Part shown: positions 1 through 14,435 of the stretch, one piece after another | How the letters are laid out: every line of letters begins with the position of its first letter | How positions within the stretch are numbered: position 1 is the stretch's first letter | NCBI GenBank assembly: GCA_965207735.1 | Contig: OZ242296.1 | Span: 3,872,001-3,936,000 of the forward strand | Reading direction: 5' to 3' | Length of the DNA stretch: 64,000 bases | Origin: Candidatus Versatilivorator sp. | GTDB taxonomy: Bacteria; Acidobacteriota; Terriglobia; Versatilivoradales; Versatilivoraceae | The notes under the pieces: model-generated | Database searches by the model: none | What the model was told of the DNA's origin: nothing | Seen by the model: the letters and a program-made list of their open reading frames with translations, nothing else | Position numbers and translations under genes: made by a program

Positions 1-1035
1 CTCGGACTCGGCAGTCTCGCCCTGGTCTCCCTGGCCGAGGCCCGGGAGAAGGCCCTGACCAACCGCAAACTGGCACGCGCGGGAGGGGATCCGCTGGCGG
101 AGAAGCGCCGCGCCGAGGGCATTCCCACCTTCGCCGAAGCCGCCCGGCGGGTGGTGGAGCGGAAGCGGGCCGGCTGGCGCAATCCCAAATCGGCGACGAA
201 CTGGTTGCGCAGCCTGGACGCCTACGTTTTCCCGCGAATCGGGAAGATCAGCGTCTCGGAGGTCACCAGCGCTGACGTGCTGGAGGTCCTCACGCCCATC
301 TGGCACCTCAAGGCCGAGACGGCCCGTGCCGTGCGGCATCGCATGCGCGCGGTGCTGGAATGGAGCATTGCCATGGGTTGGAGAGGGGATAATCCTTGCG
401 ATCGACTGCTGCCGGTGCTGGGTCCCCAACACGATGTCGTCCAACACCGCCGGGCCTTGCCCCACGGGGAGGTGGCGGCGGCCCTGGCGAGGGTGCGGGC
501 GTCGGAACCGGCCACGGCGGACAGGTTGGCCTTGGAGTTTCTGGTGTTGACGGCGGCGCGGGGCGGCGAGGTCCGCGGGGCGCTGTGGACGGAGATCGAT
601 CAGGAGGACGGTGTATGGACGATTCCCGCCAGCCGCATGAAGGCGAACCGCCCGCACCGGGTGCCGCTGTGTGGCCGGGCGCTGGAGACTCTCGATGCCG
701 CCCGGACACTGGGCGGAGGCCGCAGTCCGATCGTCTTTGTCACCGAGCGCGGGCAGCCGCTCAACAACAAGCGGATGTGCCGGTTGCTCGAGAAGTACCG
801 CATCGCGGCCGTGCCGCACGGCTTCCGGTCGTCGTTCCGGGATTGGGCGGCTGAGGAGACGGACCACCCGCGTGAAGTCATTGAGGCGGCCCTGGCGCAT
901 GTAGTCCGAAACCGGGTCGAGGCAGCCTACGCCCGCTCGGACCTGTTCGAGCGTCGGCGCCGGCTCATGGATGACTGGGCCGGCTACCTGGCCGGCGGGT
1001 GTCGAGGGGCGGACCGGTCGGTTGATTCGCCCTAA
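1..1035 (+). CDS. P4-type tyrosine recombinase/integrase, 5'-partial (runs off window)
   Basis: Frame open from base 1 (LGLGSLALVSLAEAREKA...). Catalytic motifs LTAARGGE, HGFRSSFRDW, ALAH and AAY are present. Confidence 0.95.
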   Translation, partial: LGLGSLALVSLAEAREKALTNRKLARAGGDPLAEKRRAEGIPTFAEAARRVVERKRAGWRNPKSATNWLRSLDAYVFPRIGKISVSEVTSADVLEVLTPIWHLKAETARAVRHRMRAVLEWSIAMGWRGDNPCDRLLPVLGPQHDVVQHRRALPHGEVAAALARVRASEPATADRLALEFLVLTAARGGEVRGALWTEIDQEDGVWTIPASRMKANRPHRVPLCGRALETLDAARTLGGGRSPIVFVTERGQPLNNKRMCRLLEKYRIAAVPHGFRSSFRDWAAEETDHPREVIEAALAHVVRNRVEAAYARSDLFERRRRLMDDWAGYLAGGCRGADRSVDSP

Positions 1036-1080
1036 CCCGCATTTCTCAGTGCGCCATGGAAAGGCGCCTTCTTCCAACGG

Positions 1081-1917
1081 GTGCGAAACCCGTCCAACAA
1101 CTGTCGCTCCGGTTGGTAGCAGCCAGGGCGGATCATGGAGGTAACGATATGGTCTGAAGCCCTCTGGTGTCAAAGGGCCGCTTAAGGCGGTTCAGCGAGC
1201 ATGCGGGCCGGAACGCGAGTGAACGTCGAGCAGGCCTCGAAACGGGCAATGCGGGGGCCGACCCACCTGAGAAATGGGGAAGGCCGAAGACGGAGGGGGA
1301 AGCGAGCGACGCGGGCACCCCTTTGGACCCGCCGGGGTAGTGGCGCTGGCACGCATGGAAGGGGAAGAAGGCAGCAACATGGGAAGCCCTGTGGGTGGTG
1401 AGGCACGCACCGAACCGGAAGCTCGCGAGAGTCAGTCTAGGCCGACAGGGTGGCGGAGAGGCCTGTAGTACCGGAGAAGCCGGGTAATACCGGTGGAGGG
1501 AAGGGGCCTCAGGTGAGGAGCGGTGACCGAAGGGGGAAGGGTCCCGGGAGTGGCGAAAGCCTGAAACCCCGACCAAAAAAGGGCCGGAGACTCCGGAAGC
1601 ATCACATGCAAAAGTGAAAGGGTCGTCGGAGGAGGACGGCGTCGTCAGGGCATCAACAGGCCTGGCGGCAACCCGGGAGCGGAAGTGGATGGAGTGGGGG
1701 ACGGGTGCCAATCCCATAGGAGTCGTCCACGGATGCGAGCGGGGACCTGTGTGCGAGACGCATGATCCCACTGGAGAGCCGAGATGCGGGAAAACCGCAC
1801 GTCCGGTTCGGAGAGCGGGGACTGGAAACGTGATAAGGGAGCCGGACTGAGGCCCGAAGCGAAAGCGACGGAATAGCCACCGGACCCTATAGTCAACGCG
1901 CCAGTCCTCGACTCTAC
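1081..1917 (+). ncRNA. ORF-less group II intron (~837 nt)
   Basis: Starts GTGCG. Contains the typical GTAGTACCG..GAAGCCGGGTAA..GGAGGGAAGG segment, domain V GAGCCGAGATGCGGGAAAACCGCACGTCCGGTTC (1776-1809), and a domain VI stem ending CTCGACTCTAC. No RT ORF. Confidence 0.9.
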
Positions 1918-1999
1918 CCAGAGGTAGGAAGCATCGGTTCTCGGAATCTGGTAAAATACTCTTGTCTAAGGAGTTAACCAGATTCTTAAAGGAGAACCG

Positions 2000-3367
2000 A
2001 TGCCGACACAGTGTAACACCAAACCCCTGGAGTTTGAACCCCACGGCCGCCGCCGCGTGGTGGCTGATTTCGACGGCGGTCCCATCACTTCCGATGCCGG
2101 CTCCCTGCTGTTGCGCCGGGTGGATCGGGGCTTATCTCTCTCCGACCAGGTGGCCGACTGTTTCACCGATCACCGCGACCCCAAGCGGACCCAATACAGC
2201 CTGCGCACCCTCATCGCTCAGCGCATCCGTGGCATCGCCCTCGGCTACGAGGATCTCATCGACCACGACCAACTCCGTCACGATCCCCTCATGGCCTTGT
2301 TTTCAGAGAAAGGCCGTCGTGGCGACTCGCCTCCCCTGGCAGGCAAGAGCACCCTCAACCGACTCGAACACGCCCCCACCCAAGGCCCCACCCGCTACCA
2401 CAAGATTGACCACGACCCCGAGGCCTTGCAAGCCCTCCTGGTGAAACTGTTTCTGCAAGCCCATCCCCAACCCCCCGATGAGATCATCCTCGACCTCGAC
2501 GCCACTGACGATCCCCTCCACGGGGAACAAGAGGACCGCTTCTTCCACGGCTACTACCGAGGCTACTGCTACCTGCCCCTCTACATCTTCTCGGGCCGCC
2601 ATCTGCTCTCGGCCCTGCTCAGACCCGCCAACATCGATGCCTCCGCCGGCGCTCTGGAGCAGGTCCAGCGCATCGTCTCCCGCCTACGGCGTGTCTGGCC
2701 TCAGGTCAAGATCCTGCTGCGGGCCGACTCCGGCTTTGCCCGTGAGGAGCTGATGGGGTGGTGTGAGCAGCATCAGGTCGACTATCTCTTCGGCCTGGCC
2801 CGCAACTCCCGCCTCCAAGACGCCATCGCCCCCGAGTTGGCTCAGGCCCAGGCCCTCTCAGACCAGCAACAGCAGCCCGCCCGGATCTTCACCGACCTCT
2901 CCTACCGCACTCACAAGAGCTGGTCCCACGAGCGCCGCCTGGTCGCCAAAGCCGAGGTCCTGCCCCGCGGCCCCAACCCCCGCTTCGTCGTCACCTCTCT
3001 GTCGGTCCAGGACTACCCCGCCCAGTTCCTCTATGAGAAGATCTACTGTGCCCGCGGTGAGATGGAAAACCGCATCAAGGAGCAGCAACTCGACCTGTTT
3101 GCCGATCGCACCTCCACCCACTCCTTCCGGGCGAATCAGCTCCGGCTCCTGATGACCTCTTTCGCCTATGTGCTGGTGGAGGGCTTGCGCCGGCGGGCGC
3201 TGCAATCCACCTGCCTGGCCCGGGCCACCGTCGGTTCCATCAGACTCAAACTGCTCAAGATCGGCGCTCAGGTCACCATCTCGGTCCGTCGCATCAAGGT
3301 CGCCATGGCTTCCGGATGTCCTTACCAGAGGGAGTTCCGCATCGCTTGGGCTCACCTGCCGCCCTGA
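2000..3367 (+). CDS. IS1380-family DDE transposase
   Basis: FDGGPITSDAG, LDLDATDDPLHG, LRADSGF, YCARGEMENRIKEQQLDLF motifs. Confidence 0.96.
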   Translation: MPTQCNTKPLEFEPHGRRRVVADFDGGPITSDAGSLLLRRVDRGLSLSDQVADCFTDHRDPKRTQYSLRTLIAQRIRGIALGYEDLIDHDQLRHDPLMALFSEKGRRGDSPPLAGKSTLNRLEHAPTQGPTRYHKIDHDPEALQALLVKLFLQAHPQPPDEIILDLDATDDPLHGEQEDRFFHGYYRGYCYLPLYIFSGRHLLSALLRPANIDASAGALEQVQRIVSRLRRVWPQVKILLRADSGFAREELMGWCEQHQVDYLFGLARNSRLQDAIAPELAQAQALSDQQQQPARIFTDLSYRTHKSWSHERRLVAKAEVLPRGPNPRFVVTSLSVQDYPAQFLYEKIYCARGEMENRIKEQQLDLFADRTSTHSFRANQLRLLMTSFAYVLVEGLRRRALQSTCLARATVGSIRLKLLKIGAQVTISVRRIKVAMASGCPYQREFRIAWAHLPP

Positions 3368-3610: not shown

Positions 3611-4138
3611 TCAACAGTCGCCCCCAATAGATCGCCCTCTATCGGATTCAAACACTGGAGGGAAGCGGTGAGTGCGGCGTCGTGTGAGCCTGAGGCCTGA
3701 TCGATTCTTCCAGATGCCCACCCCCAGTCTTTGGGCAAGCCTTTCGTCTTCACGGTAATCGTCGTTCCCAAAGGACTTGCCAAGCCCATTTGCCACTACC
3801 CATCGGTTCAGGTTCACTTCCGTCCTTTTGCCTACCAGGTAGCAGGTTCCTAGAAACCACTGTTTGCCGAAGTCGTTGTACTTTTCCAAATCCTCGCACC
3901 GCACCGGTTGCCTATCGAGCATCATCTGGAGGTGGGAAATGGGGTCAAGCTCTTCCGGTTTCCGCTTGTAAGTGACTGCCTTGGCTCCCCGCAAATCCAC
4001 CACGAATCCGTCAACCTTAAGCAGGTCGACACCGACGGCTGTGGCCTTCCCGAAGATGTATCGAGGCACGGGTTCTTGGAGTGAGGGTAGAGGCCCGACA
4101 AGGATTGGCAAGAGGTAGACAAAGGCATGGATCCACAT
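3611..4138 (-). CDS. SNase/thermonuclease-like exported protein (catalytic residues look degenerate)
   Basis: N-terminal hydrophobic signal; C-terminal LGTCY..NLNRWVVANGLG..YREDERLA..LGVGIW pattern. Confidence 0.65.
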   Translation of the reverse strand: MWIHAFVYLLPILVGPLPSLQEPVPRYIFGKATAVGVDLLKVDGFVVDLRGAKAVTYKRKPEELDPISHLQMMLDRQPVRCEDLEKYNDFGKQWFLGTCYLVGKRTEVNLNRWVVANGLGKSFGNDDYREDERLAQRLGVGIWKNRSGLRLTRRRTHRFPPVFESDRGRSIGGDC

Positions 4139-4196
4139 GTGGTATTACCTCCTGTCTTTTGGAGACTCTCGATATCCCTGATCAGAGGAGCAAATC

Positions 4197-4481
4197 ATGG
4201 CTGTTGCAATCTATCCAACCGGGGTCATCAGGCTGGAGGGTGTGGCGGCGTGGGCCGGTAACTGCATCTACTACCCTGTTGTTGGGTTCAGCGCAACTGC
4301 GACTGGTGACGACAGACTCGAATCCGTTAATCTTTCTGGTGCCACCAATGCCATTTGTTTCACTGGCACGATGGCGTCCGACAGAAAGAGCTATAGCGGC
4401 ACGGTCGAACAATGCTCGTCTTTCTGTCAGATTGGAGGGCCAATCTCAGAGTCAGCTACCGTGATGCCGACGGAAATTTGA
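4197..4481 (+). CDS. small hypothetical protein, possibly a fragment
   Basis: AGGAG RBS before ATG; 94 aa. Confidence 0.4.
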   Translation: MAVAIYPTGVIRLEGVAAWAGNCIYYPVVGFSATATGDDRLESVNLSGATNAICFTGTMASDRKSYSGTVEQCSSFCQIGGPISESATVMPTEI

Positions 4482-4634
4482 GACAGAAGCGTCGCTCAGT
4501 CAAGTTGATTATTGACGTCCTAGATGCCGCCACGCCTTAGGGTGTGTTTACAATCATCCAGGTTGTGCTACTGAGGTTTTTGGGGAAATTATATACGGTT
4601 CTAACCACACGCCCGCAAGTCGTTGAAAACAGGT

Positions 4635-5066
4635 TTACTCTTCTGTGATAGTTCTGACGGGAAGGACTTCAAAGTGGAAGTTATCTAAAACCTCCTCGAT
4701 TTTCTTCTTTAGCTGCACCTCTTGGAGTTTCTGTTCAGATTCTCGTTTTCCTTTAAAGATGCTTTCTACAGATTCTCCCATAGCTCTCAGTGCGCTTGAA
4801 CTTTCGTTTGTCCTTTTCACAAACAGCGCTTGCTCAGCAGGATCTTTGATATCAGTGTGTTCTGCGCCTTTAAGTGCGTTAGCAACATCAATTAAGTGAG
4901 AACCTGATTTAATACGCAACGCACTGAAAAAACTGAGCATAGTAACGACTCTGCTCGCATTCATCACCCTGATTTCCAAATCCCTAACTCTTCTTTCCAA
5001 ATCATCTAAACGACTTTCTGACATTGCTTTCTCCTCGAGTTTTTTGACACCTGCGAGATTTGTCAA
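4635..5066 (-). CDS. hypothetical coiled-coil protein (low-GC cargo)
   Basis: 143-aa ORF; a GAGGAG RBS precedes the internal Met MSESRL. Confidence 0.6.
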   Translation of the reverse strand: MTNLAGVKKLEEKAMSESRLDDLERRVRDLEIRVMNASRVVTMLSFFSALRIKSGSHLIDVANALKGAEHTDIKDPAEQALFVKRTNESSSALRAMGESVESIFKGKRESEQKLQEVQLKKKIEEVLDNFHFEVLPVRTITEE

Positions 5067-5214
5067 GTTGTGGTTTTGTCCAACTTCCCCGTCGCCAGTT
5101 TCCGCAGGGCAATAGTCATCCCGACGAAATCCATCTTCGCTCTGAGGCGTCTCGCCTTCTCGGCTAACTACGCCTTCACGAGGGAAGGAGTAAACCCACT
5201 TATGAGCGCCAGGA

Positions 5215-5589
5215 TCATGGAGGAAATCCCAAAAACAGGAACTCTTCCAAACCCTTTCGGATCATTTGCTCGCCAGTGAGTCTTGAGATTGAATCATCGT
5301 CGGTTCTGATGTTGAAAAAGCAGGTGTCGTTCTTCCCAAACACCGGCGTCGCGGTGAAGAAAGTTCCATCGAAGTTCTTCTGGACCAGTATCTGCCCTTC
5401 GCGGATCCCAAAAGTAACCGATCCACCATGGTTATTCCAAACCTCTAAACGGTCGCCGAAACTCTTGCAGAGATACTTGTTGGTTCCGAGGATGGCGTTG
5501 CGCTCCATAACCACCGCCTCCACTTCTACAACTAGACGTTTGAATTGCTCTTGCACGGAGCACTTGCTCCGCTCTGTAACCCAACTCAT
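5215..5589 (-). CDS. hypothetical protein
   Basis: AGGAGG RBS; 124-aa ORF with natural composition. Confidence 0.7.
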   Translation of the reverse strand: MSWVTERSKCSVQEQFKRLVVEVEAVVMERNAILGTNKYLCKSFGDRLEVWNNHGGSVTFGIREGQILVQKNFDGTFFTATPVFGKNDTCFFNIRTDDDSISRLTGEQMIRKGLEEFLFLGFPP

Positions 5590-5607
5590 GATTGACCTCC
5601 TATTGGT

Positions 5608-6192
5608 TCAGTTCAAGAGGATCTGAATCACCCTCCTGTCCTTCATTATTCTGGCCAAATCCAATGGGGAGACGCCGGCGTGGTTCTTGATGTTGGGATC
5701 CGCGCCATACTTCAGAAGAATATTCAATGGGGCGGCGTACTTGAACCCCACCGCCATGTGGAGGGGCGTGTTTCCCTCTGCGTCGTACACGTTCGGGTTT
5801 GCTCCAGCCTCCAGCACTATTCTCAAGGATTGGCCCGAATGGTCGTTTCCCGCGACCACGCTTGATGCGTAAATGAGGGTCAACAGAGGAATGTTGCCTT
5901 TATTCCCCTGTGTGGCGGTCATGGTGATGGCCGGGTTGAACTCTGACGATTTAACGATTCTCTTTACCTTGTCAGTGTCATGGTTGCCAGCCGCCGAAAC
6001 CAGATTGGTCACCCAATTAGCCTGGTCAGCCCACTTGTCGATCAGACTCTTATCGGCAGCACTCATTTCTTCTGTGCTGTTCACCTGGCAGGTCATTCCA
6101 GCCGCAACCAGAAAGACCATAAGGGACTTCAACAAGGCATTTATGGTGTCTCCGCTTAAAAGCGGCGCGGCCCGCCGAAGGAAGGGTGACAC
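5608..6192 (-). CDS. secreted/lipoprotein-like ankyrin-repeat protein
   Basis: GANPNVYDAEGNTPLHMAV and GADPNIKNHAGVSPLDLA ankyrin motifs; hydrophobic N-terminal segment followed by Cys. Confidence 0.85.
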   Translation of the reverse strand: MSPFLRRAAPLLSGDTINALLKSLMVFLVAAGMTCQVNSTEEMSAADKSLIDKWADQANWVTNLVSAAGNHDTDKVKRIVKSSEFNPAITMTATQGNKGNIPLLTLIYASSVVAGNDHSGQSLRIVLEAGANPNVYDAEGNTPLHMAVGFKYAAPLNILLKYGADPNIKNHAGVSPLDLARIMKDRRVIQILLN

Positions 6193-6241
6193 AGCCGACC
6201 GCGCCTGGCCCTAGAGTTCCGGCCCCAGGGTTCCCATCGAA

Positions 6242-6670
6242 TCATTTTAAAGGCCAGACCGGCCATAGCAGGGTGCCGGTATTGGAGCGGTTGTCTACGG
6301 ACACAGCCCACATATAGAGCACCCCACGCTCGATCTCCCACACAATCAAGCCATTGGTGACAGGGGCGCTGATGTGTTTCTGAGTCCAGGCCCATGGATC
6401 GACTGTGAATCGGATCTCTTCGACCAACATGCTGGCGGCGTCATAGACCTTGGCCCGAACCACGGTGTCGCCGACTTCCACGAAGTTGAACACTCCGATA
6501 TTGTCCCGCTGGTTCTCGTTAACGGTAATGCCGGCGTTGTAGGCCATGGGCTTGCGGAGGATCAGCGGAAGCAGCCCGTTGGCGACCGTGGTGGTGAGGC
6601 GCCCATCGGTTGAGTCGTTATAGACCTCTACCGTTATGGAGAACTCCTCCTCGATGTCCTCATTGGATAA
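6242..6670 (-). pseudogene. C-terminal fragment of a beta-rich exported protein
   Basis: Frame of ORF 6242-6547 continues upstream to ~6670 (LSNEDIEEEFSITVEVY...) without a clear start. Confidence 0.4.
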
Positions 6671-6829
6671 GGAGAGAAGGATGGGAAACGAACTTGTTAA
6701 ACAAGGATTTCAAAGTTCAGCAATAATCGAGCAATAATCGATGGCCAACACGTCGTTGCCTTCGCGATGCTTAAGTCCGTAGTGGTTCCATTACTTTTCA
6801 TTCCCAAACCTTTTTCTCTTGTTTAAAAC

Positions 6830-7327
6830 CTAATCCAGAACTATCGGCCGCATCGAAGTCAGCGGCTTGCAACCCGCCGCTTTGAGTTTCCTAACGGTCG
6901 CCTGATAACCTTCCCTGGCCGCTATCTGCTTCGCTCGCTTCTGGCCAGCCTCTTGCTTCGCTTTCTTATAATGCCCCCAGGCCCTTTGGACGTTACGCCG
7001 CTTGGCAGCGGGGCCTCCGACGCGATGGGCCTTCTGGCGCTGGGCCTGAGCAACAATCACCGGTATCCCCGATTTCTCTAGCTCAAGAATGGGGCTGGAC
7101 GGATCGTTGTTTCGGTGCCGGCAAATGTACACCCGGGCGTCATAGCGCAACTTCTCGCAGGCGTTCGAATCGGACGGTACGGGAATTCCACCGCCGGAAT
7201 CAACGTAGCGTTGACCCCACTCTTGGATGTAATACTGTCTGAGGGTGGGCTTCAGATCGGGGCAATCCTGAGCCGAAAGCGGAAGGGCCACCAAGGCGGC
7301 AAGGCACGAGAGGGCGTAGATTCGCAT
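6830..7327 (-). CDS. hypothetical secreted protein
   Basis: AGGAAGAG RBS; signal peptide MRIYALSCLAALVALPLSA. Confidence 0.7.
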   Translation of the reverse strand: MRIYALSCLAALVALPLSAQDCPDLKPTLRQYYIQEWGQRYVDSGGGIPVPSDSNACEKLRYDARVYICRHRNNDPSSPILELEKSGIPVIVAQAQRQKAHRVGGPAAKRRNVQRAWGHYKKAKQEAGQKRAKQIAAREGYQATVRKLKAAGCKPLTSMRPIVLD

Positions 7328-8548: not shown

Positions 8549-8909
8549 TCGGCCCTGACCTCGGCAGCGCTCGATGGCCTTCCCGCCAGGGATCACTGTG
8601 GAGGGAGCGACCCCCGAAAAGGGGAGGGAAGGTGGTGGATTTTGGCGTGCACCACCTCCCCCTCCCCGGTGCCGCACCAGCGGCAAAAAACAGGGGGTCG
8701 CTCCCTCCACTTCCTCCCCCTCCTGTGCGGCGCCACGACGCGCCGGGCGAGGGGGCGGACACGCGATGCCGACGCCCCACGGGGCTTTACCCCATAGGAC
8801 TTGGGAAATCCGTGCCAACCTGCGTCCAATGCGGGTTTCCGGGAACAGCCTGGACCACGGCGGCGAGGGCTTCGCCCTCTGAGAGTGGAGCGTTGGGGTT
8901 GTCAAAAGC

Positions 8910-8964
8910 GTGAGCCACCTGGTGCGCCACCTACGTGAGCCACCCCCCTTTTGTAAGGTGGCCA
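8910..8964. repeat. iteron-like GTG(A/C)GCCACC x3 plus a partial inverted copy
   Basis: Copies at 8910, 8922, 8935; GGTGGC at ~8957. Confidence 0.55.
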
Positions 8965-9311
8965 CCCATACGACGCCACGTCCTTGACCCCCGGAGGCGG
9001 AAATCGTCGATCATTCCTCGGCCGTTCGAGGCCGGGATTTCCTGCTCCCATTGGACGATCTTCTCCAGGACGACATCGAGGCTGGCGTGGCGTTCGACGG
9101 TGTCCTCCTGCACCCTGAATCCGCGAGCTTTGCCGGGCAGGCTGGACTTTCTCACTCCCTGGCATAGCAGAACACCCCGAAACGCCTCCTGGACCGATTC
9201 CCCTCTCAGGGACCGCAGGTCCCGCCGCCTGTGGGGAAACCAGAATGGTCGGATGGGTCAGTGGTCACCATTCGGTCCGGACCAACTGTCCCGATTAGCG
9301 ACTGGTCCGCC

Positions 9312-9648
9312 AGTAACTGTTAGGTCGAGCCGTGGGGAGCATCGTCCTGCGCCGGGCCTATGGCTTCGCGCTCAATGGCGACCGAGCACCCGACGAAGTG
9401 GCACTCTTTCACCTCCATGGGATGGAGACACAGAGCCGAGAAGCGACCCGTGCTTGTCGGAACGATACGGTCGGATCGCGTGGTGCGTAAGGACTTCGAG
9501 GCTGACGATCGTTTGCCGTTATCCTGTATGTGGGAGGTCTTGCCGCCGCGACGGGTAGCTCAAGCCCGACAGCAACCCAACGGGAATTGATCGCTGCGGA
9601 GAGGATGTCGTTTCGACCACTCCACCACAGCTTGACCGAACAGTTACT
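9312..9648. mobile_element. ~335-bp TIR element (MITE-like), copy 1
   Basis: AGTAACTGTTAGGTCGAGCCGTGG ... CCACAGCTTGACCGAACAGTTACT; collinear homolog at 12836-13158. Confidence 0.8.
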
Positions 9649-10175
9649 CGCGGACGGGTCAGCCGAGTATCAATCCTGAGTCCGAGGCCGTCAAGTGGAT
9701 GGTGAGCCGGTAGGTTATCTCAGAGGGCGACGCTCTTTCTGCTATGGGTTGGTCTTGTGACTGTGAGCTATACTGAAGGCAAGAGCTAACTGATGTCTGG
9801 CAATTTCCACATTCTGGTTCCCCCGAGGCTTAAGCGAGCCGCCAAAGACTGCCCCCTGCTTGAAGGCAACAGCAAAGCCGGGACCGTCTGATGCTCTTGC
9901 CACTTTTCCCCCTCGCCAAGCGTATCGCAGGCGACGTCCGCACCCCTCGAAGTCTGGAGGTCTGCCCCGCCTCGCCGATGGCTCCTGGGGAAGCCTCTAC
10001 GTGGGTGGCCATTCCAAGACCCTGTCCCCCACGACTACTTTGGTTAGAGAAGGCGCGGCGTGTCCGGGACCGAGGACGTTTCATGTCATTTCACCTCGCC
10101 GTGCATGGTCACAGGCTTTTTCTCTCAGAGGGCGAAGTCCCCCCTGTGGTGTTTTGGGGTGTGGGGTCTCCCCCA

Positions 10176-10310
10176 CTCGGAGACCGGCATCTTACCGATG
10201 CGCGGGAAGGCGAAACGCCTCAGGCTGGACATCCACTCTCGGTGGCGACGCCGGCCGCGCCAGCCGCCCCGCCTCTGTTCCAGCACCCGCGAGGCGGCTT
10301 CGGCGAACGT
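10176..10310 (-). pseudogene. integrase N-terminal/central fragment
   Basis: Closely matches ~13567-13701 on the same strand. Confidence 0.85.
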
Positions 10311-10354
10311 GCGGCAAGGTCTGCGAACCCGACCGGGCCGACGTCAACAGCGAC

Positions 10355-10417
10355 CGCGTCGAGGCCGCCTACCGCTGCAACGACCTCTTCGAACGCCGCC
10401 GGAATCTCATGCAGTAC
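10355..10417 (+). pseudogene. integrase extreme C-terminal fragment
   Basis: RVEAAYRCNDLFERRRNLM. Confidence 0.75.
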
Positions 10418-10523
10418 CGGTCCAAATGCTTGACCTGCGCATTGCGTCGACTCGTCACGGACGGCTCATCGCGGCGCATTTGCCGTTGCCGACGCCCGCA
10501 CCCGTTGCCTCAACCATTGACCC

Positions 10524-11522
10524 TCACCCCACAGGCCAGTAGATGCGGCGCAGCGGGACCAGCCGTCGCGTCTCGCCGTCGAGAGATTCGTAGTTCTCAA
10601 CAAGCATCTTCGCCAGGTCGTGGAGATCCAGCAGCGTCACCAGGACGTTTGCCCGGTCCGCTTCATATCTCGCTTCCTTGCTGAATCCCCCCGTGCTCAC
10701 GTAGAGGCACTTGTCGTCGATATGACGGCCACCCACGAAGCTCCGGATTCCCGGCGCGCCTACCTGATCCCCAGTCCTGTGCTTGACCTCCACCACGATC
10801 CTCGGGCTCTCGAAACCGAAGCCGTCCCGAGACGCCACGATGTCCACTCCTCGGTCCGGCCCGCGCGCTGAAATCCGGGCCTTGTAGCCCAACGCGCCGA
10901 GCGCTCCCGCAATCAGCGACTGCATCTCCTTCCAGTCCAGCCCGACGATCCGATCCTTGATGAATTCGATGCTCCTTGACTCAAGATCCTCCAGAAGCAG
11001 CTTCTCTTCCTCGTCGCCCTCCTCTTCGTCTTCCGACGGCTCCCCCTGCTCCCCTGTGGCCGCTCGCCAGACATCCTTCTCGGCCGTCTCCGGCAGTTGA
11101 AAGAGCGTCAGAGTCGATCCCAACGAGTTCTTCGTCGCGGTGGCTAACGCGTCACGTGGAACCTCCATCGCCTTCCATTCGACACCCCAGACGTTCGGAT
11201 AGGCGAGATCGAAACCTGGGTCGAACCTGTACTCTTCCTGCAGCTCACCGACCGCGTAGACGCGTCTCGTGCGGTCGTAACTGACTACGCCATCGTCCGC
11301 CTGCAGCTCCCTAGAGAAGCGGTGCAACATCCCTCCCGCATTCGCGTACCACCCCGCTCGTTCGCTCGGATACCTGTCGCGCAGCTCCGCCAGAAGCGTC
11401 TCCCTCGACTCAAACCGGCCAAGATCTCCCATGTCGGGCCAGCCAATGGCAACAAGGCCCTTGTCAATGAAACGCTGGAAAAGGCTGCCGTCACTTTCGG
11501 CTCGTACCATCCACATCGTCAT
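10524..11522 (-). CDS. Mrr-family (type IV-like) restriction endonuclease
   Basis: N-terminal MWMVRA..IGW domain; C-terminal Mrr_cat motifs GPDRGVDI..IVVEVKH..YVSTGGFS. Confidence 0.88.
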   Translation of the reverse strand: MTMWMVRAESDGSLFQRFIDKGLVAIGWPDMGDLGRFESRETLLAELRDRYPSERAGWYANAGGMLHRFSRELQADDGVVSYDRTRRVYAVGELQEEYRFDPGFDLAYPNVWGVEWKAMEVPRDALATATKNSLGSTLTLFQLPETAEKDVWRAATGEQGEPSEDEEEGDEEEKLLLEDLESRSIEFIKDRIVGLDWKEMQSLIAGALGALGYKARISARGPDRGVDIVASRDGFGFESPRIVVEVKHRTGDQVGAPGIRSFVGGRHIDDKCLYVSTGGFSKEARYEADRANVLVTLLDLHDLAKMLVENYESLDGETRRLVPLRRIYWPVG

Positions 11523-11984
11523 CTGTTGCTCTTCCTCTTTGTCGTTGTCCCAATAACTTGATCCACCCACGCCGCCGGGACGGGACCATCAACCAGTATT
11601 GATCCGACTATCGATCCGCTACCCCTGACAATCCGGCGTCACCGTCTTCCCCTACGTTCCGGCACGTCCGAAAGCCATGCATCGGCGACAGGCCCTGCCG
11701 ATCGGTTTGCGGCGCGAAACCGCTTCGCAATGTCGACACCCGTGCTTCAGGAAAAATCACAGCGCGGGATCGAGCGCGGCGCAGGTTCCCTCGATGCCCG
11801 CTGGACCCTGCATGTTACCTGCGCTCACGGCGGCATGCCAAGCAACCTGAATCGCCCGTTTGCCTCCCGCCTCTCCCGTCCCTGCCACGCACAAGGCCAT
11901 CTGCGTCTACGAGGCTGTCATCGCCTACAGATTCAGTGGGATCCACGGAGCCGACAATATCGGTTCCTCCTTGAATCACCTCCG

Positions 11985-12548
11985 TCACTGCGGTAGCGGT
12001 CTACCAAATCTCATATCAATTAAGGCCCAGTTTTGGCGAAGTTCCAAAGCCTCGTCCGTCATATTGTCAGGGTCCCCTTCAAATCTAATAGTACAAACAT
12101 ATTCCGTTCGCATGGTTGTGCCATAAACATTCTTAGAATCGAAGTGAGATGTGATTCGATAAGTATTGTTTCCAAACCGTTCAGTTGTACTTCCGATGCT
12201 GGCAAAGGGGAAGTCTGCTGCTTCAGGGGAGTCGAGATATAAGCGAACGTAGTTTCTGCAATGCATTCTGGCCTCAGTTTCAACGTAGATACGATCTCCT
12301 GGACAAAACAAGCTGCCTAATATCACTATGCCGAGCACCACAAGGCATCCATACTTAAATTCTTTCCACTTCTTCGGCTCTTCTGGCGTTAGCGTGCGTT
12401 TCTCCGTCTTTTTTTCGGCAGCCAGTCTGTCTCTGGTTTCAGCCCGCGCCTTTTCTTCCAGGTAAATTTTCCGCCGCTCTTCGGACGTTAGCCTGCTTTT
12501 CTCACCAGATCGCTGAGCAGATGGTAGAAAAGGGTTTTTCCTCATCAT
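11985..12548 (-). CDS. hypothetical single-pass membrane protein
   Basis: EERRKIYLEEKAR N-terminus, TM segment, LDSPEAADFP..FDSKNVYG domain; low GC. Confidence 0.7.
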   Translation of the reverse strand: MMRKNPFLPSAQRSGEKSRLTSEERRKIYLEEKARAETRDRLAAEKKTEKRTLTPEEPKKWKEFKYGCLVVLGIVILGSLFCPGDRIYVETEARMHCRNYVRLYLDSPEAADFPFASIGSTTERFGNNTYRITSHFDSKNVYGTTMRTEYVCTIRFEGDPDNMTDEALELRQNWALIDMRFGRPLPQ

Positions 12549-12835
12549 CTTGCAGGGCTTAGTTTGGAGTATTCAGCGCACAGAATGTGCTAGGCCCACC
12601 CTAGCTTGTCCCTTTCCCTCAGCGCACGTTCGCTTTGGACGGCTGAGCGGCAAACGTTGAGTTTGAGTATAGCAGTACAGGAACCATGGCCGAGGGTTTG
12701 CTGTCAATCAGCATCGAAACTGTCAGGGTCATGGGCATCGAAATCCCCGATCCGCAGCAAGGGCAGCGTGCCACCCCGCTCGACGGTCCCGGACGAAGAG
12801 TCTCCGGAATTGAACCATCGCAGGATCTGCCCGTA

Positions 12836-13158
12836 AGTAACTGTTCGGTCAAGCTGTGGGCTCGACCTCCTGCGGGTTTGTCCTCTATGCCAACCGAGCA
12901 ACCGACGAAGCGTCCCCCTTCCACCTCCATCGGACTGGGGGCAGAGAGCGGAGATGAAACCCGTGGAGTCGGTCCGATATGGTCGGTTCGCCATCCGTGC
13001 AGAGGGGTTTCGTGGCTAGCGAGCACTCTCGGCTGGCCTGTCCTGGGGGGCAGCCGCTACGATGGCGGCTCAGCGGCGACACCGACGCAATGTGGCTTGA
13101 TCGCTGCGGGAAGGATGCCGGTCCGACCGGTATTCCACACCTTGAGCGAACAGTTACC
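12836..13158. mobile_element. ~322-bp TIR element (MITE-like), copy 2
   Basis: AGTAACTGTTCGGTCAAGCTGTGG ... CCACACCTTGAGCGAACAGTTACC. Confidence 0.8.
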
Positions 13159-13278
13159 GTCCGCCAACGTCCTGAATGGTCCAATGGATTCCCGTTCACA
13201 AAGCGGGATTCAATAAGGGGATTGTAGCGGACTAGGTGTGAATATATCTTGTAATATCAGTTAGTTATACTAGACGAT

Positions 13279-14031
13279 CTACACCAGGAACTCGAAGGCC
13301 AGCTTGGCCACCTCCTGCGCTGTTGCTGCCCGCACCGTCCAAATGGCCGCAGCTACCTCCCGATGCGGCAAAGCCCGCATGTGCTCGGTAACGTCCTGTT
13401 GGGGACCCAGGACCGGGCCGATCCTGTCACAGGGGTTGTCGATCCTGTACTCCATGGCTACGGCCCATTCCAGGACCGCCCGCAGGCGCTGGCGCACCCG
13501 CCGGGCGCTGGAGGCCTTCCGGTGCCAGATAGGGGTGAGGATCTCAAGCAGATCGGCGCTGGTGACCTCGGAGACCGGCATCTCGCCGATGCGGGGAAAG
13601 GCGAACCTCCTCAGGCTCGACATCCACTCGCGGTGGTGACGCCGGCCGCGCCAGCCGTCCCGCTTCTGTTCCAGCACACGCGAGGCGGCTTCGGCGAAGG
13701 TGGGGATGCCCTCGGTGCGGCGTTTCTCGGCAAGGGGATCTCCGCCCTGGCGGGCGAGCTTGCGGTTGGCCAGCGCCTTCTTCCTGGCCTCGGCCAGGGG
13801 GACCAGGGCGAGACTGCCGAGACCGAGCTCCCGGCGACGGCCACGGACGACGAGGCGTTGAATCCAACTGCGGGTTCCGCTGGGCTGGACGAAGAGGTAC
13901 AATCCGTTTCCATCGGCGAATCTTCCGGGCGGAGCGGAGCGCAGAAAGGCGGCCGAAAGGGCGTTGCTGGGGTGGCGGCCGGTGGGTTTGGTTTTAGGTC
14001 GGACAGGCGCGAAGTCCGTTACAGCATCCAT
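13279..14031 (-). pseudogene. P4-type integrase truncated before the catalytic domain
   Basis: Arm-binding domain DGNGLYLFVQPSGTRSW is present; the ORF stops at LAFEFLV, just before the TAAR catalytic Arg. Confidence 0.9.
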
Positions 14032-14280
14032 CCCCCCATTATATGGGGGATGGCAGTGGATTGCAAGGGATGTTGGTAGCAAGACAAGCCACAGCAGTAC
14101 TTAGATAAGACACTCATATATAACACAGTTATAGACACTACTGGACGGCGCTAGACATCACTGGATCTTATAGGGACGTTGCGGCGGCGACAGCAGGTAG
14201 CCGTTAGTGGCATAGGGTTTTGGCCGAGTCCCCGCTCCATACAATGGGCGGCTTCTACCGGGCGAAACAGGGGTGTTCCT

Positions 14281-14435
14281 GACAAGCCGTCCCCCCGCCC
14301 TACCGGACGGATCATTCGAGAGTGAAACAATCAGAAATCGACCAATCCTTTCGCGACCTTTGTACCCCGTTGCGGTTAACCTCAACGCCTTAGTGGCCCT
14401 CCGTGGATCACTCCTTTTTCTTTGTTTCTGCGATG
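14281..14435 (+). repeat. IS110-end cassette (type A), solitary copy
   Basis: GACAAG..CGGATCATTCGAGAGTGAAACAATCAGAAATCGA...TTGTTTC, homologous to 45742-45925. Confidence 0.85.

Follow-up and report, generated by a model that had tools for sequence, protein, structure and literature searches.

A transposase-less composite of two IS66-type miniature elements, probably moved as a unit, at the attachment arm of an integrase island in Candidatus Versatilivorator

The window analysed here is a stretch of 64,000 nucleotides from the genome of the acidobacterium Candidatus Versatilivorator sp. (contig OZ242296.1, positions 3,872,001 to 3,936,000), and near its left end a pair of miniature inverted-repeat transposable elements, or MITEs, termed A and B, bracket 3.2 kb of cargo in a block of 3,845 bp (9313-13157) that is without a transposase gene. 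MITE A (9313-9647, forward strand, 335 bp) has IS66-type 23-bp terminal inverted repeats (TIRs) at 9313-9335 and 9625-9647, and those of MITE B (12837-13157, forward strand, 321 bp) lie at 12837-12859 and 13135-13157. The original prediction, made from the letters alone, had described two diverged collinear homologues, and A and B do share the same internal order, with 68.3-68.5% identity over ~340 bp; a genome-wide comparison places the nearest paralogue of A at 92% and that of B at 97%. The predicted elements and TIRs are real, but a comparison of every family end in the genome sets the boundary at the G of GTAAC, the letters outside it being variable, and not at the A given earlier, so that the ends are those stated above. 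The inner TIRs are exact reverse complements across 23-24 bp, as had been noted, but this is not a special feature of the pair, as the same 23-mer terminates four further copies in the source genome. MITE A had no match among plasmid sequences. The short-read contigs X1 and X2 reproduce the right junction of A and both junctions of B with zero differences, although they possibly come from the source sample and hence are not independent, and the left junction of A was bridged by no short-read piece among the matches listed.

The cargo is a patchwork. Facing A is a module termed left2 (9648-9941), the interior side of another island end, which includes the former 8-bp target half of A (9648-9655) and the broken 5' part of an extracytoplasmic function sigma gene (9793-9941, forward strand), and beyond it lie scraps of P4-type integrase genes (10176-10414), one a piece of 45 amino acids (aa) at 91% on the reverse strand and the other a 33-aa C-terminal piece on the forward strand. 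A restriction endonuclease of 331 aa is encoded on the reverse strand at 10524-11519, with an alternative upstream GTG start at 11570, and its predicted Mrr type is confirmed by profile matches to the Mrr_cat domain (E 3.5e-22) and, over the full length, to the PADLOC candidate PDC-S02 (E 3.4e-88). It carries residues that we take to be a D...D-x(n)-EVK motif, and none of the PDB sequences was found to match it. An orphan protein of 187 aa (11985-12548, reverse strand, 46.5% GC) has one hydrophobic stretch, judged by eye, and 13 unnamed homologues, but no Pfam, NCBIfam or PADLOC family; the best score in an Atlas search, 0.85, is a lead only. The cargo ends with a module termed left1 (12739-12836, forward strand), the interior side of a third island end, in which the former 8-bp target half of B occupies 12829-12836. 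Both inner flanks are interior halves of other island ends, and their own 8-mers are unlike the outer one. The nuclease module recurs at 96-97% three more times, in the source genome, G008 and G012, and none of these copies is bracketed by MITEs: there is no MITE near the first two, and half an A lies 1.6 kb from the third. The other copy in the source genome (97%; L021:6377-10781, within G000:C1:3166000-3171000) is convergent with the gene of a 296-aa protein, for which Pfam, NCBIfam and PADLOC gave no match, and lies beside a DDE transposase. The nuclease would be a passenger with a predicted anti-phage role, and what was captured is island debris in which a single defence-type gene is intact, not a conserved defence unit. 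The defence unit originally proposed is not supported as such, the cargo being a patchwork of remnants whose nuclease recurs without brackets, and the whole unit having been found once.

The block lies at the far end of a host island of 13.65 kb (G000:C1:3871634-3885292, or about -366 to 13292 in the window), whose own P4-type integrase gene (1-1035, forward strand) begins left of the window. To the left of A is an island repeat segment, seg/left3 (8567-9304), and to the right of B is the attR arm of the island (13159-13281, forward strand), with GTCC repeats spaced by 10 bp, a purine-rich doublet from 13203 and an AT-rich block from 13255 that we take to be IHF-like, the roles of the arm motifs in general being presumed. 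The 11-bp att core CACCAGGAACT (13282-13292, forward strand) is repeated at the left end of the island (G000:C1:3871634-3871644), ~360 bp left of the window, and the island interrupts another P4-type integrase gene, with breaks on its two sides at the same codons, the N-terminal half being at 13282-14034 on the reverse strand and the C-terminal half just left of the window. Among the 14 genomes of the genus the distal arm was matched over its full length in three others, G005, G011 and G013, and in all three the same island end lies at the same integrase codon. In six relatives a stretch of 19.5 kb upstream of the adjacent core gene, and in a seventh one of 11.6 kb, contain no part of the island.

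The outer ends of the block are flanked on the left by the 8-bp sequence GTCCGCCA (9305-9312, forward strand) and on the right, after an extra C at 13158, by a second copy (13159-13166, forward strand). The direct repeat originally given as GTCCGCC is present, although its length is 8 bp rather than 7 and the right copy stands one C away, and flank comparison bears out that neither A nor B has a duplication of its own. Taken alone the repeat is weak evidence, because the favourite target of the family is GTCCRCCA and 6-13% of cross-pairs match: when outer flanks of distinct elements are paired, at least 7 bp agree in 44 of 728 cases, or in 22 of 170 if the flank on the right is an att arm, whereas random positions agree to this extent in 63 of 100,000 pairs. 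A fortuitous match is thus likelier than the GC-rich DNA invoked in the original prediction would imply, but an empty site supports a jump regardless, and it is this empty site, not the direct repeat, that is the real evidence for a composite. It is found in G011 (L176), where an island belonging to the same family, located at the same codon of the integrase gene, has a single GTCCGCCA, as had been anticipated for a composite. The counterparts of window positions 8971-9312 (87% identity) and 13159-14165 (84%) are joined there with an 8-bp overlap, so that seg/left3 abuts the attR arm directly. An earlier reading, in which the two MITEs had inserted independently and the repeat was a shared target, had at first been thought highly probable and was overturned by this site. 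Two MITEs thus flank a transposase-less passenger with a duplication at the outer ends only and a matching empty site, and, with the cognate IS66 ends and their 8-bp duplication described below, this supports the predicted MITE-flanked composite moved in trans. A, cargo and B probably arrived in one jump, an IS66 transposase acting in trans on the two outer ends.

The sequence of events would have begun at two oppositely facing island ends elsewhere, each of which would have gained a MITE at the arm hotspot, so that A and B came to enclose 3.2 kb of island debris. A, cargo and B could then have been moved by their outer TIRs through the action of an IS66 transposase that either has been lost since or came with a transient element, and the inner flanks would therefore have kept their old target halves. 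Finally the unit would have landed in the attR arm hotspot that single MITEs use, duplicating 8 bp. The flanks in the relatives bear directly on a quite different account, according to which there is no composite at all, A and B having inserted independently in neighbouring island ends, with local deletions making the junctions and the apparently empty site of G011 being a later deletion between repeats. The frequency of cross-pair matches is in keeping with such an account, as are the facts that the left and right flanks of B are natural island-end modules that adjoin in other islands and that host modules broken exactly at the target 8-mer also occur without a MITE. However, in G005, G011 and G013 the arm is preceded by a left3-type flank, as on the left of A, and never by the left1 of B; the inner flank of B is consequently foreign to this arm, and independent insertion, largely refuted, is very improbable. 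Moreover, every other stand-alone copy has an arm on at least one side and A has none, and if A and B are counted as one unit, the unit obeys the arm rule set out below. The pattern of arm flanks, the inner 8-mers and the arm-less A are the signature of transposition by the outer ends.

The same site is differently occupied in other relatives. In G013 a C-type MITE, a gene for a 193-aa protein and a second C-type MITE stand at the same base, together spanning 1,071 bp, with an exact outer 8-bp duplication; the C copies are directly oriented, with 85.5% identity, and for the gene there is a weak match to HEPN (E 9e-4) that does not reach the cut-off. In G005 the site holds a tandem of a C element and a reversed B, and in G004 a TIR stub follows the same left flank. 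These arrangements are relevant to a stepwise origin, in which one MITE made the 8-bp duplication and the cargo and second MITE came by recombination, for example through two crossovers of a circle, one with an A-type copy and the other in the similar arm sequence, or by a transposase-made cointegrate. Such a route has been proposed for the MITESen1 composites (PMC13367494, in the portion consulted), and it fits the direct C copies of G013 better than it does A, cargo and B; the single and tandem MITEs at one site in G005, and the non-matching flanks of nearly half of the single elements, are also consistent with it. Against it, a single crossover or cointegrate leaves one MITE type at both ends, and as A and B differ two events would be needed, while both inner flanks resemble untouched donor junctions. 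At 68% identity, homologous recombination between A and B is itself unlikely. For the block in the window a stepwise origin is considered unlikely, although clearly less so than independent insertion, and the single jump is preferred.

A number of observations nevertheless count against the single jump. The arrangement of A, cargo and B was found once among the 14 genus genomes, with no second site and no donor copy. The outer TIRs, on which the transposase would have acted, have 2 and 3 mismatches to the family consensus, and the right copy of the duplication is shifted by one C, although small offsets are also seen in 7 of 40 duplicated single elements. Of the 79 distinct single elements compared, 37 have no duplication of at least 7 bp, and recombinational shuffling of flanks must therefore be common in the family. 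The G011 island is at a different chromosomal position and about 85-88% identical, which makes it a homologous island and not a direct ancestor, and no joint of the empty allele was present among the matches listed for X1 and X2. Two further arrangements were noted in the same relatives. At the position corresponding to window 9288-9304 (L176, L012, L184), the left3 8-mer is separated from GTCCGCCA by 9-10 bp, which in G011 and G013 resemble the start of a TIR; in G005 a whole C-type MITE takes the place of this spacer, and the spacer may be a scar left by an older MITE to which the island end owes its origin. A cluster in G013 (L182:10659-15260) has a B element, TIR starts 4 kb apart and tandem ends at the arm, without a matching outer duplication, and is possibly an older or rearranged composite.

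The cognate transposase is to be sought outside the source genome, in which no IS66 domain, no DruA-like gene and no tblastn trace of the cognate genes were found. The check through the TIR suggested in the original prediction succeeded, as IS66 elements with the same TIR and an 8-bp duplication occur in three of the 14 genus genomes, and the left end of A matches the end of the G005 element across ~28-33 bp. The autonomous elements at L022, L026 and L160 have exact 8-bp duplications. That of G002 is complete, with 3,202 bp, an exact 8-bp duplication and two genes, one encoding the PF03050 transposase (743 aa) and the other a DruA/DUF4338-like protein (293 aa), and the G005 and Gemmatimonadota copies have the same layout. 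At L022 the two open reading frames (PF03050 and PF14236) fill positions 41-3147 of 3,202 bp, leaving TnpA and TnpB absent. The cognate transposases are 743-754 aa long, with a long N-terminal extension, and match PF03050 and the NCBIfam IS66 model above cut-off. The absence of TnpA and TnpB agrees with the ISBst12 group but the possession of two reading frames rather than one does not, and because of the second, DruA-like frame the element is filed as IS66 family only. A search of 201 genomes of the phylum with the G002 transposase at E<=1e-60, run without a positive control, gave no matches. In an array at one arm in G005 (L160:4390-10588) two C-type MITEs, a B-derived end, a fusion of an IS4/Tn5-like transposase with DruA and the IS66 element, which brings its own DruA-like gene, lie together, and DruA/DUF4338 domains thus accompany two unrelated transposase families. 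In Gemmatimonadota, TIR-bounded units of 1.9 and 1.6 kb with 8-bp duplications (L056:1146-3022 and L098:1385-3022) contain a 433-437-aa protein with no family above cut-off; they are passenger-carrying IS66 derivatives, and movement of cargo by this family therefore recurs.

A and B belong to a family of 16 elements in the source genome (four A-type, seven B-type and five C-type, the last of 138 bp), and they are short, multi-copy and without transposase or conserved reading frame. B was matched in 9 of 13 other genus genomes and in none of 27 more distant relatives, and the exact TIR pattern occurs in at least 120 stretches, the titles among the matches listed being those of metagenome-assembled genomes of Acidobacteriota, Gemmatimonadota and Gammaproteobacteria. 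An exact duplication of at least 8 bp flanks 40 of the 79 distinct elements, each of no more than 700 bp, and in 33 it is exactly 8 bp with zero offset. TIRs in common with an IS66-encoding element and an 8-bp duplication make A and B IS66-family MITEs, although their interiors do not appear to be deletion derivatives of the cognate element: in comparison with five IS66 regions they match at the ends and in one 41-bp stretch (80%) only. The common ends, duplication length and target suggest that the MITEs are mobilised by the IS66 transposase.

The flanks of the elements are conserved among copies because insertion goes into a multi-copy module, which forms the far end of P4-type integrase islands. 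Of 35 arms examined, 25 have a repeat of at least 7 bp that begins 123-129 bp away from the MITE target and is found again upstream of a co-oriented integrase, three of these pairs, which span more than 40 kb, being less sure. A hidden Markov model (HMM) trained on 14 empty arms found an arm beside all 14 insertion sites in the source genome, with A-B and one C-B tandem each counted once, but at only 1 of 3,000 random positions; there are ~38 arms in that genome (37 and one more in a later scan). Among loci L022-L104 with both outer flanks visible, an arm was present at 27 of 29 sites in Acidobacteriota and Gammaproteobacteria. In Gemmatimonadota the HMM placed an arm at 4 of 15 sites, and a looser AT-block rule, written after the data had been seen and with a null of 92 in 20,000, at 8 of 15; autonomous copies there had an arm at 3 of 6. 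Insertion sites lie ~125 bp from the island core, and 36 of 40 HMM-placed sites fall within 1 bp of one position, those from related genomes being partly non-independent. Element type, orientation and 8-mer vary widely, which implies many separate insertion events, and the autonomous copies of G005 and G002 occupy the same arm site as the MITEs. Such precision across differing 8-mers would argue for active targeting, perhaps by DNA shape, by bound integrase, IHF or excisionase, or through the DruA-like gene, the alternative being the survival of harmless insertions.

It had also been suggested that the conserved 330-bp interior might be a structured RNA or a recombination site, of whose function the TIR-like ends would be part. 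The interiors are conserved in three phyla, the autonomous IS66 element shares so little of them (the ends and the 41-bp stretch), and RNAalifold pairs show double changes in 13 of 51 and 8 of 36 cases, all of which might be expected of such a function. However, an Rfam search of the interiors gave no match, the minimum free energy z-scores of 22 folds were between -1.4 and +2.3, and the consensus energies of -27 and -13 kcal/mol are weak beside about -103 to -136 for single A or B sequences, with an RNAalifold covariation term of about -1.3; moreover the element ends and duplication are those of IS66. An RNA or recombination role of the interior is hardly credible, and the notion of a recombination site holds only for the flank, the target being an integrase attR arm. 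A coding interior was rejected, since no reading frame stays open across 36 copies.

Several features of the surroundings may be recorded. The source genome has ~27 P4-type integrase N-termini; many of its islands end in a REP (repetitive extragenic palindrome)-like repeat with a common core of 7-9 bp, and in several the end falls within another integrase gene or an island repeat. A large family of islands thus seems to be directed at dispersed repeats and not at tRNAs. Within the window there is no tRNA. The island of the split integrase has at its outer end, at positions 14250-14400, a dispersed repeat for which BLAST gives more than 200 matches in the genome. Within the host island, at 1075-1917 and 2000-3367, group II intron domains (Rfam RF02003 and RF00029) directly precede an IS1380-type transposase (PF13701), and further cargo in the region 3611-7327 comprises several small orphan reading frames and a protein with ankyrin repeats (5608-6192), the N-terminus of which is signal-like.

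Taken together, these observations allow a wider proposal, which is offered tentatively: an undescribed IS66 lineage, with a long transposase and a coupled DruA/GNAT-like gene, may actively home, with single-base precision, on the attR arms of P4-type integrase islands, its hosts being marine Acidobacteriota, Gemmatimonadota and Gammaproteobacteria. It would probably recognise the protein-DNA complex of the arm, and its MITE pairs may load new cargo, with defence-type genes among it (Mrr here, the HEPN-like gene in G013), onto islands spread by integrases. Arm targeting would explain how small integrase islands gain cargo at the far end with their att sites undamaged. A natural, base-precise target, a candidate transposase, an accessory gene and MITE substrates make IS66 target choice directly testable. 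The literature, consulted in part, mainly in open access and without ISfinder (including PMC10969869 and PMC10853773), yielded no account of an IS66 MITE composite, IS66 target specificity, att-arm targeting or a DUF4338-transposase association, and the novelty of the family is provisional. In the portions consulted, it was stated that no composite bounded by non-TIME MITEs had been reported in Enterobacteriaceae (PMC13367494), a 2024 MITE review made no mention of IS66, and IS66 transposition was described as insufficiently characterised (PMC12898284).

Comparison with known systems, which as regards the papers cited draws on portions of each, places the cognate element close to described IS66 relatives. 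GTAA ends and 8-bp duplications are IS66 traits (PMC12898284, PMC3281130, PMC12888890), the duplications being seen in ISPpa5a and ISPpa7 (PMC3281130). ISDge4 of the ISBst12 group has TIRs that begin with GTAA, GTAACTGCTCAGCA, close to the family ends, and an 8-bp duplication, and this group shares with the cognate element a PF03050 transposase and the lack of TnpA and TnpB (PMC12898284), whereas the long transposase and coupled DruA/DUF4338-like gene, the latter a GNAT domain (PMC10853773), set the cognate element apart. ISPa75 (tIS66) is a passenger-carrying IS66 relative (PMC12888890). The closest parallel to the composite is provided by the TIME-COMPs, Tn3-derived MITE composites that transpose in trans (PMC4133298), in which two transposase-less miniature elements likewise bracket a passenger of captured neighbouring DNA with an outer-only duplication (PMC4133298, PMC13367494). 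These differ in their 38-bp Tn3 inverted repeats and 5-6 bp duplications, as against IS66-type 23-bp TIRs and 8 bp here, and in having near-identical flanking MITEs, unlike the 68% subfamilies and fixed att-arm target of the present case; the A-to-B block behaves in the manner of a TIME-COMP without being one. Documented MITE composites are mainly those of Tn3-derived elements, and here there are an empty site, two MITE subfamilies as ends and, at the same base, a second composite of independent origin. The nuclease, with its full-length match to the PDC-S02/Mrr endonucleases, has nothing distinctive. The composite is ordinary in concept, and the att-arm-targeting IS66 family is the lead worth following. 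Transposons that hunt the recombination sites of other elements include Tn5053/Tn402 at res, IS1111-attC elements and IS4321 in the ends of Tn21, and the family resembles them in using a fixed spot in the recombination region of another mobile element, thereby gaining a ride. It differs in enzyme family, in having the attR arm as its target and in a preference that is not absolute (8 of 15 in Gemmatimonadota). If the proposal is true, these elements would be an 'att hunter' counterpart of the res-hunting transposons, with the arm spot serving as a loading dock for cargo.

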